A stretch of DNA of 64,000 bases. Source: a virus. The translations under genes were made by a program, and so were the position numbers. Location: IMG/VR virus record IMGVR_UViG_3300009314_000003, positions 1 to 64,000 of that record; one strand, 5' to 3'. Shown piece by piece: positions 13,487 through 61,155 of the stretch. Numbering within the stretch: position 1 is the stretch's first letter; each line of letters begins with the position of its first letter. The notes beneath the pieces are model-generated. The model was not told where the DNA came from. It ran no database searches and saw only the letters and a list, made by a program, of their open reading frames with translations.

Positions 13487-13562
13487 GCTGATGTAGCTCA
13501 ACTGGTAGAGCAGTTGATTTGTAATCAGCGGGTCGGGGGTTCGATTCCTCCCATCGGCTCCA
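13487..13562 (+). tRNA. tRNA-Thr(UGU)
   Basis: Acceptor stem GCTGATG/CATCGGC, D arm GCTC-AACTGGTA-GAGC, anticodon loop TT-TGT-AA, T arm GGTTCGATT, encoded CCA; 76 nt. Confidence 0.95.
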
Positions 13563-51168: not shown

Positions 51169-53826
51169 ATGGCACTTCCTAAAATCACAAGTGTTTTGAC
51201 AGATGGAAATCTGGAACGGGCCGAGGGTAGTGGTAATCGTAGTAAACATATTACCATTATAGGTACAGCTGTAGATGGGCCAATGTATACATCGGTGACG
51301 ATCCGAGATCTGGATCACGCTGAGAGCATTTTTGGTACCTTCAATAGAGGAACTCTTCTCCGCGCCATGAATGAGGCATGGCAAGCCCAGATGGATAGCG
51401 GTAGAACTCCGTACATCTCTGGTGTGCGTGTAGGTGGTCTGGTTGCTTCGAGGGCTGATCTTGAGATTGAGAATAATAACTCAGAAGTAGCTCTAAAGCT
51501 TGAGGCTCTTTACCACGGTAGTCGATATAATGACATCGTTATCACCGAGGATAGTTCTAATGATGCTATCAAGATATACAACCCCGTATCTGGTATTTGG
51601 TCAACCTTCAAATATAACTGGACAAATTCCAACGCGGGAGGCGTAGATGCGCATAACGTCGTTGAACTGGCAAATGCCATCAATGCTGATAGTAATCTGA
51701 ATGGTATTTTGGTTGCATCGGTTCCTGAGATGATTGCTACGTTTGAGGTATTTGCTAAAAGCGGCGACGCTTTTGTGTCTTCCTCAAATAGTAAAACCAC
51801 TATCACCCTTAATGGGGCCGGTAGTGGCGATCTAAATGCAGACACTCTTTACCTGGACGGGTCATCGAGTACCACTACCATAGACGAAGTTCATAGACCA
51901 ATTGTAAGAGTGTCAAAGGTGTATGCTATTACTGATGGTGGTATCGAGGTTCTTGAGGGCGGAAGTTCTCAGGCTACGACAGTACATCTACCTCTGGCGG
52001 GCCGGAGTGATACTCGTTTTGATACCCTTCTCAATGTTATTGATGAGAACGGGACATTAGGCGAGCTAGCTCAAACCCCGGATGATTTGGCCATAACTTC
52101 AGAAGGGTATTTCAAAGTCCGGAATCAGGGCATTGGTATACTTGATCTTGATGTTGGTAGTATTACCTTCGATGCTCCCCTTGCTATTGCCGATGCCGAT
52201 ACTTCAAGTAATTTAAGTGGTACAGCATCAGCCTATACTACGGCTAAAAATTATGGTGCTGGTTACACTGCAAGCAATCTTGGAGCAGAATTCCAAGGCT
52301 TAACTAGATGGACAGTAGCAGGGGAAGAAAGTTCCTCTGGTACTTATCCTATCAAAGTTGAGTGGAAGGATCCCTCTGCAGGACCTAATGCGTGGCAGGC
52401 CGCCAATCTAGGCGACACAGCCTGGGCCCTTAGTTGGGCAAACGATCAAGCGACACTTACGTTCCCAAGCAGTACACCGGACAGGTATGACGGAATGGAG
52501 ATTAGAATCTCTTTCGATTCATGTATTGGAGTGTTCAATGAGAAGTCAACCCTGGCCGGGGTTGAGGAGTCTTCATCTTCCTTCCTGGATTACTTTGTGC
52601 GAGGTCAGGAAATCATCTTTGGTAAAGCCCTACCACATAACTTGGCAGTTCGTTACGCCAGGGTACAATACTATGAGCTCGGCTCCACAATATCTCTAGA
52701 AGATGCTGAGGCCGGCAAATTTAGTATTACTGGTGTAGGTATACAACCAGGTCCTGGGGGCGGTGCTCTTGGAACTAGCGATAGTACTATCGGCTTTGAT
52801 GTTATATACGCTCAGGATGAATTCAGTTTAAGTAGCTCTCAATCTCTTCTAGGTGGTACCTCCGGTACTGGTTTATCGGATAGTACTCTCTACAGTGAGC
52901 TAAAGGAGGCCTATGATAATCTGGATGCATTTGATTTTGACCTCTTAATCACACCTGGTGCATATATTGACTCCACAAAAGGTGGTTACAATGTACTAAC
53001 AGGCGCTCCAGAAGAGGTGAACGCAGGATTCCATGAGCTTATGGATGAGTTTCTCTCCGGTTATAATGGAGATGCCCGTGGTATTATGGGTTTCAAACCC
53101 ATAGTAGGTACTGGTATCAATAATACCATCAGCAGGAAAGATGTTGCCAGTCGTGTGTCCAAACTAACTGTAGTTGATTACAGTGATAATCTTCGTGCGG
53201 CTAACTTTCTGGCTAACTTCGACTCCAAATATATGATGGCTATTGATCTAGAACCTATCGTTATAGCTAAAGGCTCCCGTTATACAACTACGGGCGAAGC
53301 AATAGTTGCTGGTCACCTGGCAATTCTAGAGCCAGAAGAAGCCCCTTATCTTAGCTCCTTAACAGGTACACAGGGTCTTCGTTATCGTTACTCTAGTAAA
53401 GTAGCTGATGGCCGTAGTCAACTTGATGCACTAAGCGACATGAGAATAATAGGGGCCAGGATCGATGGTTACAGGGCGCGGCTCGTTGATGGACCGTCCC
53501 TTGCTGAACCTGGATCTGATTACGAACGCTGGACAACCTCCAGCATCGTGGCTGCTGTTATGAAAGATGTTCGCGCTGTTGCCGAACCATTCCTCGGACA
53601 TGTCTCTAATTTGCCTACACTACAGGCACTGGAGACTACTCTCCGAAGTAGACTTAATCAGCGAGTACCAAAGTCACTTTCCGCGTATTCCTTTAAGATC
53701 AAGTCTTCTCCGGCACAGAAGGTTGTTGGCATCATCGAAATCCCACTGACATTGGTACCTGTGTTTGAAATCCGTCAGATAAAGGTTACAGTTGTACTTA
53801 AGGCTGACGCCTCGACTCTGGCGTAA
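51169..53826 (+). CDS. tail sheath protein
   Basis: IIGTAVDGP...AESIFG at the N-terminus; C-terminal F.G...LVPVFEIRQIKVTV. Confidence 0.9.
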   Translation: MALPKITSVLTDGNLERAEGSGNRSKHITIIGTAVDGPMYTSVTIRDLDHAESIFGTFNRGTLLRAMNEAWQAQMDSGRTPYISGVRVGGLVASRADLEIENNNSEVALKLEALYHGSRYNDIVITEDSSNDAIKIYNPVSGIWSTFKYNWTNSNAGGVDAHNVVELANAINADSNLNGILVASVPEMIATFEVFAKSGDAFVSSSNSKTTITLNGAGSGDLNADTLYLDGSSSTTTIDEVHRPIVRVSKVYAITDGGIEVLEGGSSQATTVHLPLAGRSDTRFDTLLNVIDENGTLGELAQTPDDLAITSEGYFKVRNQGIGILDLDVGSITFDAPLAIADADTSSNLSGTASAYTTAKNYGAGYTASNLGAEFQGLTRWTVAGEESSSGTYPIKVEWKDPSAGPNAWQAANLGDTAWALSWANDQATLTFPSSTPDRYDGMEIRISFDSCIGVFNEKSTLAGVEESSSSFLDYFVRGQEIIFGKALPHNLAVRYARVQYYELGSTISLEDAEAGKFSITGVGIQPGPGGGALGTSDSTIGFDVIYAQDEFSLSSSQSLLGGTSGTGLSDSTLYSELKEAYDNLDAFDFDLLITPGAYIDSTKGGYNVLTGAPEEVNAGFHELMDEFLSGYNGDARGIMGFKPIVGTGINNTISRKDVASRVSKLTVVDYSDNLRAANFLANFDSKYMMAIDLEPIVIAKGSRYTTTGEAIVAGHLAILEPEEAPYLSSLTGTQGLRYRYSSKVADGRSQLDALSDMRIIGARIDGYRARLVDGPSLAEPGSDYERWTTSSIVAAVMKDVRAVAEPFLGHVSNLPTLQALETTLRSRLNQRVPKSLSAYSFKIKSSPAQKVVGIIEIPLTLVPVFEIRQIKVTVVLKADASTLA

Positions 53827-54030: not shown

Positions 54031-57000
54031 ATGAGTAATGTGTTTGATGTAAGTACAAACGATGTTGCTAAGACATTTACGACCTTCTCTGGTTCGGACA
54101 TCAAAGCGGTATTCGGAAATGTGGAGATAGGCAATCTGCAAGGCCTTTCACTCTCGGTAAACCGTGAGGTGAGGCCGGTGTTTGTGATGGGTAAATAGAT
54201 GATTTGCCCTTTCCTGCTAATATCGGGGAAATCTAAGGGCCAGTGGGCCTATGGCAATCCCGAGGCAAGCCCATTATGTGGCAGCCGTAGAGACTTGATC
54301 AGCAATGATCAGGCTCCGTTGAGAAAGACCCTAATACAGGGTAACGGAAGCAATACGCAGGAGCTGTCTAAATGAACGATCAAACACATCAGCTATTGAA
54401 TGGTAGTCTGTTGGGTGACGGTTACTTGAGCAAGTGCCAATATCATACCGCCAGTGATGGATACACACGCTGGCATAATAGTCGTTATGAGGAAGATCAC
54501 AAAGAAGATGACAAGTCCTACCTTGAGTGGAAGGCAACAATCATGAGTCAGGACTTTGATGTGAAGTGGGTATATAAAGAGGCACGCACGTTGGGCATTA
54601 AAGGACATGAGGCGGACTGTGGTCCTGTTTATCGAATTTACACCAATACGTCTACTGAACTGTCCGATCTACGGCAGATATGGTACCCAGATGGCCAGAA
54701 GATAATACCGGACTATCTGGATGACTTTGACTCCTCGACACTGACTTCCTGGTACTATGATGATGGCACCTATCATGTTCACCGTCAGATAATAGAGATC
54801 AGCACCGATAGTTTCACCCTTGAGGACGTCAAACGCCTCCAGGGATGGCTTAGAGACCGGTGGAACATTGAGGCTGCCATCAAGCGCAAACCAGGACACG
54901 CTATTAGGCGGTACTACCTTCATCTTAACAGGGAAGCCTCCAAGAGGCTCCTCAGTCTAGTCGAGGATGTACCAAGTATGGAACGCAAGAAGCCTATGGG
55001 CTGGGATGGAGTCTTTGATCGTAGTGAGACACCATCCAACTTTCATAGGCGGCTGAACGCTAGGCTGTCCTCAGGTGAGAAGCGGAAGCTAATAGTCCTC
55101 GACCTACAAGAGTTCTATGAACAGACTGGGCCGTGGGATGGTTTCCCAGCCGTAAAGTATCACTACACTGAGGATTGCATAAGTCCAACCCTGGCCATAC
55201 GCCACTTCGGATCATTCAAGGTGGCTCTCGAGTCGGCCAGACTGCCAACTAACTATATTTAGACAGCAAGAGATAGTCCATACCTACCGAAAGGTTAGGA
55301 TGAATTGAAATCAGATGCCGTGAGTTACTCGAAGGGTAAATAGATGTTTGCCCTTGTAAAAGCTAGCTCGTTCGAGGAAACCTACAGGGCCGTGAGGCGC
55401 CAAGGCAATCTCGATGCAAAGACGGTCCCGGGGACTTGGTTACCGGGATGCAGAGGCGGTAGAGACTGCACGCTAGCCAGCTGGGCCTCCAAGGGTCAAA
55501 CAGCTGAAGGAACAGTCCAGGCCCATGGGAAACCATGGAGAATTACTGAAACGCGGAATCGCAGGGTTGAGATGAATTGGCTCTGCTTAAATCCGGCTTA
55601 TATCGGTGAACGCCGAGAGGCTAATACCGAGGGGTATCCGTACCTGTGATGCAAACAATAGGAACTAACATAAATGTCTAGTGGAAAGTGGAAGAAGTAC
55701 AGATCCTGTCCTATTACTAGAGACGGGGTCAGAGTACTGTATGGGACTTTGCTAGGAGACGGATCCTTATTTAAGGATCCAGAGTGTGTGAATTATAGAT
55801 TTTCAGTAACACACTCTAATCGTCACTCAGATTATATACAGTGGAAACAGTCTATACTTGGACTTCCATCGAGTATTTGGAATGATGAGAAAAGAAACCT
55901 AGTAAAACTTCAGTCACTAGCCTGTACCGAGCTTACTTCTATACATACCAGCTTCTACAATGGAGCTGTTAAACGAATTCCACGTGACATTGACTTAACT
56001 GAACTGCTGTCACCTTTATCGATAGCTACCTGGTTCATGGATGATGGTAGCTACGATGTTGAGGAGGCAGTAGTTATATCCGCGTATGCTTTCTGCGAAG
56101 AAGATATGCTTCGTGTAGCAAAATACATGGATCACGTTTATGGGATTAAGATCAATGTCTGGAGTGATAATCGTGTTTACATACGCAAGGAATCACATGA
56201 CAGGTTCTTTAGTATTATCACTCACTACGTAAGTGAGGTTCCTTCTATGCATTATAAGGTACGCACTTGGATAAAACCAGGTGTCTCCCAGGTGAAACTC
56301 CTGGGGTATGACGAGCCCTGTAGAGACTATCCCACAGCCGTGGGATCATGGGATGGATTTATCCGCCCATGAAACGCCGGACTTGAACTAATAGAATATG
56401 AACTGGACACAAGAAGAAACTGAGATCCTGAGAGATAATTACTCCTGGAATCCAAGGACAGCTATGTTACTTCCTAACAGGTCTGCACATCAGGTAATAA
56501 AGAAGGCTAATAATATAGGCCTGAAGAGAGATGGGCGAGGTAGGATAGATACTCTAAGGGCTGACTATTTTGATCATTGGACCCCTAACATGACATACAT
56601 CCTAGGATTCTTCACAGCGGATGGAAACATATATGCACCACCAACCCGGGTTGATGGGGTTAGTGTTTATAAGATCACATTTGCCCAAAGTGACCCATAC
56701 ATACTAGAACTAGTATGTGATGAGTTGGGTATCTCAAGAGGGTATATTTATGGACAGCAAGGGCTTAATGCCTTACCTCAGGGCGGGTACCTGAATATGA
56801 TACATCCGATGTATAGGGTAATGTTTACCAGTAAGTATATGGTAGAGAGATTGAAGGAGCTTGGCTTGTCTGAGCGTAAATCAACACAACTCAAGAAAGT
56901 ATCCGTACCTAAGAAGTTCTTCGCTCACTTCTTGAGGGGCTACTTTGATGGAGATGGTTGTCTTCAGATATCCAATAACACCACACCAAGTATCACATTT

Positions 57001-60000
57001 ACTGGTGGATCGAGGCAGTTTCTTAAATCAATCGAGGCCCGAATCAGTCGTTATTGGGATCTCCCAGGTGGCAGACTAAGGCCCAGGAAAAGAAACAAGG
57101 TCTGGGATCTGCGGTATCGTAAGGCTACTTCTCTCGAGATCTTGAAGAGAATGTATGAGGGCCATCCAGATATTCTATGCTTACTGACTAAGTACAACAA
57201 ATATGCGGGTGTTATAGGTGATGATGTAATTGATATACCAGAAGTATCATACAATTACCGAGTCTATGACACTGGCACACAAGTTCAAGAAGATATAGTC
57301 CAGGAATAGAAGATAACGTAAGTTATTGATAATTCAGCACTTATATTGACCATGTTTGACCGCCAAGCCCTACACGACATCATGCGGAGTGCTCGCTATG
57401 TAGCCAAACCAGATGATTGGGCAGGGTCGGCGGGTGTTTCTCGTGCTTTAGGCGATGCCTCAGATGTAGGTAGTGACTACACCCTGGAGTCTCCATCATA
57501 TAGTGACCAGATTCCACCGTTCGATATTACACTCGTCGGTAAACCTAAATAAGAGATGAGTAATCTTAAATACGATAAAGAACAGTTAGTATCTGAATCT
57601 CTTATTGAACAGCCGCTCTCAGAAGCGATTCTGAGTGAAACACCGGGTGAATTCAGTGGATCCCTAAGTACCAGTCAAATCTGGGATATGGCAACACTGA
57701 GCCAAGCCACGCTGGGCTTTGATAGCGTGGAAGGTGCAACGACTACATCTCTGAGTCCCAACAATAACGAGATGCACGAGCTCCCGGCACCCCTTCGGGG
57801 TGATGATATAGTCTGTGCTTCAGGGAAACCTGAAGAAGTAGCGGATAAAGAGCCGCTATGGTAACAATACAGGTTAACGAGTTTGGGTCAGCGACAACAA
57901 TGCGAATACATGGAGTTCACCTCATTTCAGAGGGAACTGGTGTGTCGGTTGACAATCAGCCGCTTTCCCAAGAGATTGGGATTGACAAACTGGGTGAATT
58001 CGGAGGAAGCCTAAGTGCTATTGCATAAGGTAACTCCGAGCCAAGCCGTACTGGGCTTAGATAGTACGGAAGGTGTAGAGACTAGCTTGAATCATATAAT
58101 AATAGTTCACCAAAGTGTGTAACGAAAATGAATAAAGACAAACGTAGCATACTCTTAGGTATGTGTATAGGAGATGGTTACATAGGTGTCAGTACAGACA
58201 AACGGTGGAATACCAAATCCTACGTACTTAGGCTATGTCACTCAGTGAAGCAGAAAGCATATCTAGAGCATAAAACCGAGCTCCTCCATTCTGCTTTAGG
58301 TGGCAAGAAACCTAGAATCGTTGAGTATAACAATAATGGATACCCAGGTGTGAAGTGTAGCAAGACAAATAAGTACTTTAAGGTGCTTAGAGATTGGTTG
58401 TACAAGGATGGGGAAAAGGTTGTTACCCGTAGAATCCTTGATATGCTTACTCCACAAGGTATCGCAATATGGCATATGGATGATGGTAGTTTGTATACTA
58501 AACGCCGCAACGGAAAGGTTCACGCTTGGGAGTTATGTACCAGCACATATGTAAGCTGGGATGAAAACCAAGTAATAGTGGACTATTTTCGTGATGTCCA
58601 TGGAATACGCTTTACAATAGTCAAGGGAAAAGGAAAGTACAGGATTCGCTGTGGTACAAAAGAGGCAAAGAAGTTTATTGAGATCGTCAAGCCATTTATA
58701 ATACCATCAATGTTGTACAAAGTCCGAATGATCTCTGACAATAATGATTCAAGCCAAGAGCGCCCAGCACCCCACGTGGGTGATGATATAGTCCGGACTC
58801 CAATGAAAGTTGGAGAGATAAGGTTTAAACGGCCTTATGATAACAAGTCGTGATGACAATGTCCAAGAGGCGACACAACTGCCTCTCTTCTCGAGTAATT
58901 GAGATGCCTAAACCAGGCTTATATCAGGGGAGGCTAAGTCCTACGGGATATGCTAATCCTGAGGGGTTCACGCCCTGCAGAGACTCATCCACTATGGATG
59001 GATCCGGAGTGCTTTGTCAGCCGGATAATACGCCTGGCTCCCACTTTATGTGGGATGATGAGATAGTCCATACCTACCGAAAGAGTAGGAGTAAATGCAC
59101 AAATGACGTTTGTGGCTTTACCCAAGACGGGCTGGGTCACATTAAACCGTGCTTAATCGGGGAACCCTTACTGGGGAATCCCGAGGGGTGTTTCGTCCCG
59201 GTTACTGCCGGGAGTCTGACAAGCCCTGTAGAGACTGAATAGTATGAAACTATGGACTAACAAAGAAGTTGAGATCCTTCACGAGAACTATAGCTGGAAT
59301 CCGCGTATTGATGAACTATTACCGGATCGTCCCAGACGTCAGATTGTGAGTAAGGCAAACCGAGAGGGCCTGAAAGTAATGGGACGCGGACGTGCATGGG
59401 GCTTAAAGGTAGACTTCTTTGACCATTGGAGTGAGGAGATGGCTTATGTTTATGGCCTGATCGTTGCTGATGGGTGTATAATGAAGCGTAAGGATAGTGG
59501 TATAATGGTTATTGATATAACGCTAAATGATGAAGACCACATTAGGCGATTAGCCAATTTGTTGGGCGTACCAGAGCGTGTTTATAGTAACAGTGATGGT
59601 ACATATCATCTGAGGTTTGTTAGCAACTACATAGCCAAAAGACTGATGAAGCTTAAGGTTCCGTTTCGTAAGTCTCTTGTCCTTGGTAAGCTTCCTGTCC
59701 CTAAGAAGTTCTTCTCTCACTTCCTACGTGGTTACTTTGATGGAGATGGATCCTTCAGTATTAATGCTAAGGGCCGAGCTCCTATGCTTAGTTTCACATC
59801 AGGTTCATACAATTTCCTTCGATGGATTCAAGCAAAGTTAAAGAGGTATTATGGCTTTCCAATGGGTCGTCTTCGTAATAAGAAAGGCACCAATACATGG
59901 AATGTCTGGTATAGGAAATCTGCATCTATATTCCTAATGGCAATAATGTATAGGGATAAGGGTGACCTCTTTCTTCGCAGGAAGTATAACAGATACATTA

Positions 60001-60206
60001 GTTATCTATCCGATCAAGGACATACTATTCGAGAAAAGGAATTCATTTCCCTTCTAAACGCACGGCTACCTCAGAAAGAGGTAGAAGAGATAGTCCATTC
60101 TCTTGAACAAGAGAAGCAGCAAGTAACATGGTGGAAACCAGTTGAATCCGACGCGGACAAACTAGATATCGATGATATTTCAGGTACGATAGTTGGATTA
60201 CAATAG
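54031..60206 (+). CDS. tail tube-type structural protein, 206 aa, split into 8 exons by 7 group I introns
   Basis: join(54031-54192,55308-55337,55549-55567,57338-57540,57873-57949,58851-58870,59098-59117,60117-60206) gives a 621-nt open frame. It aligns motif by motif with the paralogue at 60247 (TFSG.DI, RE..PV, RGIAGS/RTIAGS, DQ.PPF, VNE.G, EG, FVA/YVA). It follows the sheath gene and has an AAGGAG RBS. Confidence 0.88.
54193..55307 (+). mobile_element. group I intron 1 (HEG in P8)
   Basis: P1 GGGU|AAAU...AUUUGCCC with U-G; P3 UCCUGC/GCAGGA; P7 GACU/AGUC; terminal G; P10 UGAUUU/AAAUCA. Confidence 0.9.
54372..55262 (+). CDS. LAGLIDADG homing endonuclease (intron 1)
   Basis: LLNGSLLGDG and WYYDDG; C-terminal RHFGSFKVALE repeat. 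Confidence 0.88.
   Translation: MNDQTHQLLNGSLLGDGYLSKCQYHTASDGYTRWHNSRYEEDHKEDDKSYLEWKATIMSQDFDVKWVYKEARTLGIKGHEADCGPVYRIYTNTSTELSDLRQIWYPDGQKIIPDYLDDFDSSTLTSWYYDDGTYHVHRQIIEISTDSFTLEDVKRLQGWLRDRWNIEAAIKRKPGHAIRRYYLHLNREASKRLLSLVEDVPSMERKKPMGWDGVFDRSETPSNFHRRLNARLSSGEKRKLIVLDLQEFYEQTGPWDGFPAVKYHYTEDCISPTLAIRHFGSFKVALESARLPTNYI
55338..55548 (+). mobile_element. group I intron 2 (ORF-less, 211 nt)
   Basis: P1 AAGGGU|AAA...UUUGCCCUU; P3 GCUAGC pair; GAGACUG/CAGUCC; terminal G. Confidence 0.88.
55674..56372 (+). CDS. LAGLIDADG homing endonuclease (intron 3, P6)
   Basis: LYGTLLGDG and WFMDDG. Confidence 0.88.
   Translation: MSSGKWKKYRSCPITRDGVRVLYGTLLGDGSLFKDPECVNYRFSVTHSNRHSDYIQWKQSILGLPSSIWNDEKRNLVKLQSLACTELTSIHTSFYNGAVKRIPRDIDLTELLSPLSIATWFMDDGSYDVEEAVVISAYAFCEEDMLRVAKYMDHVYGIKINVWSDNRVYIRKESHDRFFSIITHYVSEVPSMHYKVRTWIKPGVSQVKLLGYDEPCRDYPTAVGSWDGFIRP
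56398..57309 (+). CDS. LAGLIDADG homing endonuclease with N-terminal Myb-like helix domain (intron 3, P8)
   Basis: WTQEETEIL, YILGFFTADG, HFLRGYFDGDG. Confidence 0.88.
   Translation: MNWTQEETEILRDNYSWNPRTAMLLPNRSAHQVIKKANNIGLKRDGRGRIDTLRADYFDHWTPNMTYILGFFTADGNIYAPPTRVDGVSVYKITFAQSDPYILELVCDELGISRGYIYGQQGLNALPQGGYLNMIHPMYRVMFTSKYMVERLKELGLSERKSTQLKKVSVPKKFFAHFLRGYFDGDGCLQISNNTTPSITFTGGSRQFLKSIEARISRYWDLPGGRLRPRKRNKVWDLRYRKATSLEILKRMYEGHPDILCLLTKYNKYAGVIGDDVIDIPEVSYNYRVYDTGTQVQEDIVQE
57541..57872 (+). mobile_element. group I intron 4 (ORF-less, 332 nt, extended P1)
   Basis: CGGU/GCCG with an AAUAAGAGAU/AUCUCUUAUU extension; GAAUUCAGUGGA, CACUGAGCCAAG, CGACUA/AUAGUC; terminal G. Confidence 0.88.
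57950..58850 (+). mobile_element. group I intron 5 (HEG in P7.1)
   Basis: P1 CGGU|UGA...UCAGCCG; P3 CUGGGUG/CGCCCAG; GAGACUA/AUAGUC; P10 AUCA/UGAU; terminal G. Confidence 0.9.
58128..58853 (+). CDS. LAGLIDADG homing endonuclease (intron 5)
   Basis: LLGMCIGDG and WHMDDG; its stop codon lies in exon 6. Confidence 0.88.
   Translation: MNKDKRSILLGMCIGDGYIGVSTDKRWNTKSYVLRLCHSVKQKAYLEHKTELLHSALGGKKPRIVEYNNNGYPGVKCSKTNKYFKVLRDWLYKDGEKVVTRRILDMLTPQGIAIWHMDDGSLYTKRRNGKVHAWELCTSTYVSWDENQVIVDYFRDVHGIRFTIVKGKGKYRIRCGTKEAKKFIEIVKPFIIPSMLYKVRMISDNNDSSQERPAPHVGDDIVRTPMKVGEIRFKRPYDNKS
58871..59097 (+). mobile_element. group I intron 6 (ORF-less, 227 nt, atypical 5' junction)
   Basis: P1 AGAGGC/GCCUCU; P3 CCAGGC/GCCUGG; GAGACU/AUAGUC; P9 like intron 1. 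The junction is ambiguous by about 1 nt. Confidence 0.8.
59118..60116 (+). mobile_element. group I intron 7 (HEG between P7 and P3')
   Basis: P1 UGUGGCU/GGUCACA; P3 CCGUGC/GCACGG; P8 CUACCUC/GAGGUAG; P10 GCUG/CAGC; terminal G. Confidence 0.9.
59244..60206 (+). CDS. LAGLIDADG homing endonuclease (intron 7), in frame with the last tube exon
   Basis: WTNKEVEIL, YVYGLIVADG, HFLRGYFDGDG; the last 29 aa are exon 8. Confidence 0.88.
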   Translation: MKLWTNKEVEILHENYSWNPRIDELLPDRPRRQIVSKANREGLKVMGRGRAWGLKVDFFDHWSEEMAYVYGLIVADGCIMKRKDSGIMVIDITLNDEDHIRRLANLLGVPERVYSNSDGTYHLRFVSNYIAKRLMKLKVPFRKSLVLGKLPVPKKFFSHFLRGYFDGDGSFSINAKGRAPMLSFTSGSYNFLRWIQAKLKRYYGFPMGRLRNKKGTNTWNVWYRKSASIFLMAIMYRDKGDLFLRRKYNRYISYLSDQGHTIREKEFISLLNARLPQKEVEEIVHSLEQEKQQVTWWKPVESDADKLDIDDISGTIVGLQ

Positions 60207-60246: not shown

Positions 60247-61155
60247 ATGCCTTACGGACCATTTCAGTTTGGTAGTTTAGAATCGGGGCAAACCTTCTCC
60301 GGGGTAGATATTATTGCTACCCTACGGGGACCAGATATACCCGGAGCTATTGCTATGACAAACCTAAACACCGTAAGTTACTCTATACACAGGGAGAAGG
60401 CACCCGTCCGTCGACTCGGGCGGGTGTACTCCCAAGGCTACACCAGAGGCCCCCGCACAATCGCCGGCAGTATGGTGTGGATAAACTTTAATAAGGCAGC
60501 TCTCTGGGAACTAATTAGAACGGCCCCTGGCGAGGAATCGCCTGTTCACTCCATCATGACAGATCAGCTCCCCCCTTTCCATATGGGCTTTACCTTTGTC
60601 AATGAGAATGGGCTGTCAGCCTTTATGAATCTCTTTGGCATTGAGATTGTGGACGAGGGAATGGTGCTGGGTACGGATGAGGCTTACCTAGAAACGACCA
60701 TGCAATATGTAGCAGAGGATATTGACCTTATGTACCCAGGAGATGATATTAACGAGAAGTGGGATGAGCTTATGCGGCAAGGTATAGACAAACAACACCA
60801 TGAAATCTTTAATAGTAAAGAGGAAGCCAACCAGTTTGCTGCTGAGTTAAGGGGTAAAGGAATAAGAATAAATGTTGGGAAAATAATGAGTGGAGAAGAT
60901 AAGGATAAGTGGAAGGTGTACTTTTCCTTAACAACAGGTGAAGAGATGTTCAACGTCTTAGGTCCATCAAATAAAGACTTTGTTCGTATGATGAAGGCAG
61001 CAGGTCTACTTGATTTTGATCCTTGGGGAGAGAGTCTTGATAAGAAGGATCTTGTATACTATGACGCCCATGGAAATCCACACTACGATACAACCCATAC
61101 ATATCAACACTATACACCACCACCACCTGAACCTGAAAATGGAGATGATGGTTAA
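60247..61155 (+). CDS. tail tube-like virion protein (paralogue 2)
   Basis: TFSGVDI, REKAPV, RTIAGS, DQLPPF, VNENG; intron-free homologue of the split gene. Confidence 0.8.
   Translation: MPYGPFQFGSLESGQTFSGVDIIATLRGPDIPGAIAMTNLNTVSYSIHREKAPVRRLGRVYSQGYTRGPRTIAGSMVWINFNKAALWELIRTAPGEESPVHSIMTDQLPPFHMGFTFVNENGLSAFMNLFGIEIVDEGMVLGTDEAYLETTMQYVAEDIDLMYPGDDINEKWDELMRQGIDKQHHEIFNSKEEANQFAAELRGKGIRINVGKIMSGEDKDKWKVYFSLTTGEEMFNVLGPSNKDFVRMMKAAGLLDFDPWGESLDKKDLVYYDAHGNPHYDTTHTYQHYTPPPPEPENGDDG

Follow-up and report, generated by a model that had tools for sequence, protein, structure and literature searches.

Can a phage gene of which nine-tenths is intervening sequence still encode an intact virion protein, and what are its interruptions? 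The question is raised by IMG/VR record IMGVR_UViG_3300009314_000003, a viral contig of 147,988 bp (CheckV completeness 77%) whose first 64 kb were analysed here and are called the window. In it, the coding sequence of a tail-tube-type gene, 621 nucleotides (nt) long, is distributed in eight exons over 6176 nt, 89.9% of which is intervening. A reading made without database searches (hereafter the sequence-only reading) had proposed that seven group I introns split this gene. Our analysis leads us to consider it very probable that this is a myovirus-type phage tail tube gene split by seven group I introns (I1-I7) and spliced after transcription to give a protein of 206 amino acids (aa).

Eight exons join into one conserved reading frame

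The exons were found by means of the peptides given in the sequence-only reading, located in three forward frames, and their boundaries were then refined (Table 1). Joined in silico, they form a single 206-aa open frame without a stop. Compared with L002, an intron-free homologue, this product shows 71% identity over 186 residues (E 9e-98), and it keeps the consensus residue at 30 of the 30 columns with at least 90% conservation in a 65-sequence homologue alignment. When intron-free homologues were searched against the region using tblastn, all eight exons were recovered in order, even those of 19-20 nt, and a ribosome-binding site precedes exon 1. The extent of the gene, its intron share of about 90% and the eight exon lengths put forward earlier are thus confirmed by coordinates and by tblastn, and the spliced product aligns to intron-free homologues as had been expected.

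Precise excision in silico therefore restores an open and conserved frame of the host gene. Since the joined product is open and retains all of the conserved residues, the interruptions must be removed precisely; since they bring stop codons and frame shifts, removal would have to take place at the RNA level. Inteins were considered as interruptions and rejected on the same grounds: stops or frame changes follow the exons, and the frame stops two codons into I1, where the reading frame of exon 1 ends, and likewise two codons into I2. The lengths of exons 3, 5, 6 and 7 are not multiples of three. If an exon were skipped in splicing, loss of exon 2 would preserve the frame, whereas loss of exon 3, 5, 6 or 7 would disrupt it. 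Conservation near the insertion sites (0.59-0.73, compared to a gene median of 0.59) gave no strong signal.

All seven interruptions carry a group I core

Each of the seven interruptions could be assigned helices P1, P3, P4, P5, P6, P7 (with its GACU/AGUC pairing), P8 and P9 by coordinates, and all of them end in a terminal G. An exon U precedes six of the seven, I6 being the exception, and the U-G wobble of P1 at the 5' splice site is present in I1-I5 and I7. As examples, I3 forms P7 between 56325-56330 and 57295-57300 and P8 between 56382-56389 and 57282-57289, and I7 forms P1 between 59112-59118 and 59134-59140, with the U-G pair at the splice site, and P3 between 59147-59152 and 60060-60065.

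Covariation within these helices was assessed with RNAalifold on short sub-alignments; whole-intron MAFFT alignments were structurally inconsistent. For the P4-P5 region of the seven introns and two relatives, P4 and the base of P5 were predicted, with compensatory changes in five of eight pairs and no pair of P4 broken in any of the nine introns. Ten introns compared over their 3' region share a conserved J8/7-P7 block, and compensatory changes occur in each of the six P9 pairs. Judged from these comparisons, the group I core is conserved in all seven introns. In most of them, P7 and the 3' strand of P3 are separated by one or two additional hairpins, as in IA-type introns, which suggests that these introns belong to this type.

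A covariance-model search, proposed in the sequence-only reading as a check, bore out part of the set. The Rfam group I model RF00028 (gathering score 50 bits) detects four of the seven introns, of which I4 alone exceeds the gathering score and I5, I6 and I7 fall below it. For I1, the model gives only a partial match of 13 bits, at the correct place of P4-P6, and it gives no match for I2 or I3, even when these are searched alone. The group I core and terminal G claimed for each interruption are nonetheless confirmed, and for I1-I3 the assignment is based on hand-mapped helices, covariation and relatives instead of the covariance model.

A twintron or a hidden exon within the long intron I3 was also considered. 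Both were rejected: the homologues run from exon 3 straight into exon 4, and a single set of core helices spans both I3 open reading frames (ORFs), with the 3' strand of P3 between them.

Table 1. Features of the split gene and its neighbours (window coordinates). Bit scores for introns refer to RF00028, those for ORFs to the Pfam family named.
Feature	Position	Strand	Length	Description
Tail sheath gene	51169..53826	+	885 aa	PHROG 16991 tail sheath, E 5e-35
Exon 1	54031..54192	+	162 nt	Residues 1-54; 81% identity to N-terminus of intron-free L002
I1	54193..55307	+	1115 nt	Group I, ORF in P8 loop; P1 and P3-P9 mapped
I1 ORF	54372..55262	+	296 aa	LAGLIDADG_2; PF03161 84 bits (cut-off 25)
Exon 2	55308..55337	+	30 nt	Aligns with homologue residues 60-68
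I2	55338..55548	+	211 nt	Group I, without ORF; all helices mapped
Exon 3	55549..55567	+	19 nt	Six residues, 100% identity to L002
I3	55568..57337	+	1770 nt	Group I, two ORFs in two different loops
I3 first ORF	55674..56372	+	232 aa	LAGLIDADG_2, P6 loop; PF03161 101 bits
I3 second ORF	56398..57309	+	303 aa	LAGLIDADG_3, P8 loop; PF14528 40 bits (cut-off 22.5)
Exon 4	57338..57540	+	203 nt	53% identity to L002 residues 74-137, E 1e-17
I4	57541..57872	+	332 nt	Group I, without ORF; 77.3 bits, E 7e-19
Exon 5	57873..57949	+	77 nt	73% identity to L002 residues 136-165
I5	57950..58850	+	901 nt	Group I, paralogue of I4; 37.1 bits, E 8e-7, match spans ORF
I5 ORF	58128..58853	+	241 aa	LAGLIDADG_2; PF03161 106 bits
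Exon 6	58851..58870	+	20 nt	Last base G, not U; aligns with homologue residues 162-169
I6	58871..59097	+	227 nt	Group I, without ORF, non-canonical 5' splice site; 40.3 bits, E 8e-8
Exon 7	59098..59117	+	20 nt	Six residues identical to L002
I7	59118..60116	+	999 nt	Group I; 29.5 bits, E 1.4e-4, match in 3' part
I7 ORF	59244..60206	+	320-aa open frame	LAGLIDADG_3; PF14528 57 bits
Exon 8	60117..60206	+	90 nt	Includes stop codon; conserved C-terminal tryptophan block of the homologues
Tube-like paralogue, uninterrupted	60247..61155	+	302 aa	PHROG 9206, E 4e-25

The predicted fold and gene order point to a tail tube protein

The fold was judged on homologue L002. Its AlphaFold model, built with the 65-sequence alignment, has a predicted local distance difference test (pLDDT) score of 79 and a predicted template modelling (pTM) score of 0.66. 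In a Foldseek search, the top PDB matches of this model are the tail tubes of phage 812, PVC, AFP and lambda (V), with E down to 1e-6; pyocin and Hcp are matched as well, and a total of 62 chains reach E <= 0.001. The tail tube fold that had been expected from structure prediction was therefore found, in the model of the homologue. At the level of sequence families, Pfam Phage_tube_2 scores 19.8 bits against a cut-off of 27, which is below the threshold for membership.

Gene order agrees with the fold. The split gene directly follows the tail sheath gene, starting 205 nt 3' of it. In tblastn searches, the sheath ORF hits sheath genes in Bacillus phage 0305phi8-36 and Moorella phage MTATph1. 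A weak match links exon 4 to the gene annotated as tail tube beside the sheath gene of Bacillus phage KLEB27-3. The sheath region gave no match in nucleotide searches of cultured phages. Together, the predicted fold of the homologue and the position after the sheath gene support a tail tube protein as the product of the split gene. PHROG 9206, labelled 'major head protein', matches both the tube homologue (E 8e-45) and the paralogue at 60247 over profile positions 15-167 of 501; the homologue is predicted to fold as a tail tube, and this label is probably wrong, or derived from a fusion.

An uninterrupted, longer tube-like paralogue lies 3' of the split gene. Most related loci whose DNA reaches far enough have such a second match after the first gene, and it was never interrupted in the loci examined. 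Candidate roles for this longer protein are a second tube layer, an initiator or a terminator. Because the paralogue stands beside an intact first gene in most such loci, the tandem pair is ancestral and the paralogue no replacement for the split gene. Taken together, the homologues, the fold, the position after the sheath gene, the intron cores and the PHROG match of the paralogue support the proposal of a tail-tube-type gene in eight exons with seven group I introns. Elsewhere in the window, Rfam identifies a tRNA gene at 13487-13559 (64.8 bits).

Four introns contain five LAGLIDADG ORFs

Five intact ORFs in four of the introns pass the Pfam LAGLIDADG cut-offs, each translation having two acidic motifs of LAGLIDADG type: three belong to LAGLIDADG_2 (in I1, I3 and I5) and two to LAGLIDADG_3 (in I3 and I7). 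None has a close solved structure by sequence. The ORFs are accommodated within the intron folds in different ways. In I1, the ORF fits exactly between the P8 strands 54363-54370 and 55260-55267. In I3, the 3' end of the first ORF overlaps the 3' strand of P6 as well as P7, P7.1 and P7.2, and the 3' strand of P3 (56376-56381) sits in the 25-nt spacer between the two ORFs; the second of these is 40% identical to the I7 ORF (E 4e-66). Several endonuclease genes in one intron are known from fungal mitochondria (PMC11835236). The stop codon of the I5 ORF extends 3 nt into exon 6. The I7 ORF lacks its own stop codon and reads in frame across the 3' splice site to the stop of the tube gene, so that unspliced RNA would yield an endonuclease joined to the last 29 residues of the tube protein.

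From the sequence we infer splicing, autocatalysis and endonuclease activity along the following lines. Each intron would fold such that its guide sequence pairs with the end of the upstream exon (P1); an external guanosine would then cut the intron, and the exons would be ligated after the terminal G. All seven splicing events would be needed to obtain the 206-aa tube protein and may gate its production, as suggested in the sequence-only reading. The endonucleases would cut intron-free alleles in co-infecting relatives and thereby copy the introns in.

The same ORFs could have another role. At least some of the introns, I6 first and then I1, I3, I5 and I7, though real, may not be autocatalytic and may require intron-encoded LAGLIDADG maturases or host factors, which we regard as a serious though clearly minority possibility. 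LAGLIDADG maturases are known from organelle introns and offer a precedent, five intact LAGLIDADG ORFs have been kept, and a G instead of a U precedes I6. In addition, core helices are overlapped by ORFs in I3, I5 and I7, which requires translation and folding to be coordinated. Set against this, the helices of the catalytic core are intact in all of the introns. Many phage group I introns that have been tested self-splice in vitro, but four of eight validated Bastillevirinae genes were spliced only in infected cells (PMC11878797). If some introns were maturase-dependent, production of the tube protein would depend on prior translation of the intron ORFs.

LAGLIDADG domains are also found on the contig past the window. 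At 67319-72976 (+) and 140863-142758 (-), LAGLIDADG_3 domains lie in open frames of 4405 and 1397 codons, respectively, and are probably several inteins in large structural or other proteins. Such domains in giant frames give the impression of a genome heavily colonised throughout by LAGLIDADG elements.

Intron content is patchy among related loci

Over several scans, 198 related IMG/VR loci were fetched, the best 80 of 177-249 matches per scan being examined. The first gene is intron-free in 196 of the 198 loci and split in two, L001 and L180. With exon 1 as the query, 16 IMG/VR loci were retrieved, and 15 of them have one uninterrupted ORF of about 190-230 aa that runs through all exons in order.

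The two split relatives share insertion sites with the window. L001, whose exon 1 is 85% identical, has introns at the exact I2, I3 and I4 sites before its contig ends, and the intron at its I3 site, which has no ORF, matches RF00028 at 68.8 bits. L180 has an intron at the I2 site only, and I1 is absent from both. Comparison of the three I2-site introns (window, L001 and L180) reveals compensatory changes in P1, P4, P6a, P8 and P9; those in P1 include two double changes involving the exon and the guide, with pairing kept. Among the loci compared, this patchy content is what mobile introns would be expected to leave as they are gained and lost.

The intron of L001 at the I4 site (L001:8923-9770) contains an ORF of more than 276 aa that starts 20 nt past the 5' splice site and within which the contig ends. 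Window I4 carries a 10-bp hairpin (57548-57557/57597-57606) in the P1 loop, at the position of that ORF. An ORF may once have been lost here, leaving the hairpin as a scar, or the hairpin may be where an incoming ORF lands.

Similarities among the introns are short and imperfect

I4 and I5 are paralogues with 71% identity over stretches of 136 and 93 nt, and the 3' end of I1 is 94% identical to I6 over 31 nt. In nucleotide searches of cultured phages, introns of Streptococcus and Clostridium phages match the 3' part of I4 at about 80% identity, a match confined to the conserved 3' core, and I6 has no match.

These values bear on whether the locus could be an assembly artefact, in which introns of different co-occurring variants were stitched into one contig. 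The contig was assembled from a metagenome and is 77% complete according to CheckV, and relatives do vary in intron content. Yet the introns share at most stretches of 31-136 nt at 70-94% identity, so that there are no long exact repeats to mislead an assembler, and the exons of 19-30 nt are shorter than a read, so that neighbouring introns must have been linked on single reads. We therefore judge an artefact to be highly improbable.

The exon ends show a further similarity. Five of the seven upstream exons end in G-G-U (54189-54192, 55334-55337, 55564-55567, 57535-57540 and 57944-57949); I1, I2 and I3 are each preceded by G-G-G-U, and I4 and I5 by an identical six bases. Shared exon ends and the paralogy of I4 and I5 hint, as a hypothesis only, at spread within the gene to look-alike sites. 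In its full form this hypothesis holds that the introns multiplied within the gene by ectopic insertion (reverse splicing or relaxed homing) at sites sharing only the last 4-6 exon bases, and that I6 splices despite its G-C pair, a combination that we think unlikely. If it were true, the G-C pair of I6 would amount to a form of recognition undescribed among natural group I introns, and the gene would be a natural system for ordered, interdependent self-splicing across exons of 19-20 nt.

I6 departs from the wobble rule

In the P1 of I6 (58866-58872/58880-58886), exon base G 58870 pairs with C 58882 and no U-G wobble is formed, a departure not remarked on in the sequence-only reading. To our knowledge, this wobble is near-universal at group I 5' splice sites. 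Other junctions for I6, combining a preceding U with a terminal G, were enumerated by hand and rejected, each of them breaking the frame or changing the length of the block around I6, which is 13 residues in all homologues. I6 may be defective.

Several observations, then, speak against seven functional group I introns in a tail tube gene. With G as the exon base before it, I6 may splice poorly or need the help of a protein. P10 amounts to just 2-3 bp for I3, I4, I5 and I6, and no P10 pairing was found for I7. I1, I2 and I3 have no significant match to RF00028. The predicted structure is that of a homologue, 71% identical to the joined product of the window, rather than that of the spliced product itself. 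Finally, the contig being a metagenome assembly, the co-occurrence of the seven introns in one virion genome is assumed. Our confidence in a functional product is lower than our confidence in the gene map, mainly because of the G-C pair of I6.

The non-canonical 5' splice site of I6 and the weak P10 pairings would also fit a decaying or non-functional allele, in which splicing has been lost from at least one intron, I6, and the virus relies on the paralogue at 60247 or is defective; so would the heavy infestation of the genome, with LAGLIDADG domains within giant ORFs elsewhere. We consider this improbable, as the 30 highly conserved residues are all kept, the 19-20-nt exons are intact and in frame, and all five endonuclease ORFs are open. 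The paralogue, moreover, accompanies an intact first gene in most related loci with enough DNA.

Discussion

A tail tube gene spliced from eight exons, the reading that we favour, has its closest counterpart in orf142 of Staphylococcus phage Twort, an example already named in the sequence-only reading: this gene is now recognised as encoding a tail tube protein, and it has three group I introns and a skippable exon of 23 nt (PMC11878797, PMC10136302). Both are myovirus tail tube genes interrupted more than once by group I introns, both have a very short exon between similar introns, and the tail tube of phage 812, a relative of Twort, is the top structural match of our homologue model. The window gene differs in having seven introns rather than three, five LAGLIDADG ORFs and exons of 19-30 nt, and the likeness of the two proteins is at the level of fold only (8-9% identity). 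Bastillevirinae have up to three introns per gene and small internal exons, with exon skipping observed in nanopore cDNA (PMC11878797). Their introns are likewise group I with loop-encoded endonucleases, but these are mostly HNH and the host genes, encoding DNA polymerase, terminase and ribonucleotide reductase, serve DNA metabolism or packaging, whereas the window has LAGLIDADG ORFs only, in a structural gene.

The sequence-only reading had taken three introns per gene as the extreme known in phages. This is out of date: a major capsid protein gene of the crAss-like Zeta group is in five fragments (PMC7886860). The crAss-like (Zeta and Delta) and Jug phages resemble the window phage in being metagenomic and in having core or structural genes fragmented by group I introns and inteins, the latter probable in the window phage. 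Jug phages have an average of 18.5 introns per genome (PMC12880540), mostly small and ORF-less, unlike those of the window. In the window phage, by contrast, the group I introns found by Rfam in 148 kb are all in one 621-nt gene. Unlike crAss-like phages it also has a sheath, and it is therefore not a crAss-like podovirus.

Outside phages, the cox1 gene of fungal mitochondria has a comparable intron density per coding length, LAGLIDADG ORFs and a patchy distribution among relatives; in Agaricus bisporus it holds 18 group I introns (PMC2987802). That gene resides in an organelle genome under weak pressure for compactness, whereas the window gene is a late virion gene in a phage genome of lytic type, a setting that usually favours dense coding and rapid expression. 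The window gene carries seven group I introns in 621 coding bases, or one per 89 nt. In the literature searched, this intron density is well above the three introns per gene of cultured phages and the four interruptions of the crAss-like capsid gene. A literature search directed at phage genes carrying four to seven introns turned up no denser case, an absence that is no proof. Apparently, then, the gene is for phages a record-dense case of known selfish elements and involves no new mechanism.

The finding has several consequences. In phages of this kind, core structural genes will escape gene callers. The G before I6 makes it possible to test directly how strictly the wobble rule holds in nature. 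Relatives that have no intron, one intron or at least 3 at identical sites form a natural series for the study of intron gain and loss, which also serves to address endonuclease-driven competition between co-infecting phages and the avoidance of exon skipping by ribozymes 19-20 nt apart. The intron load of this gene implies that a highly expressed late virion gene can tolerate 90% selfish sequence.

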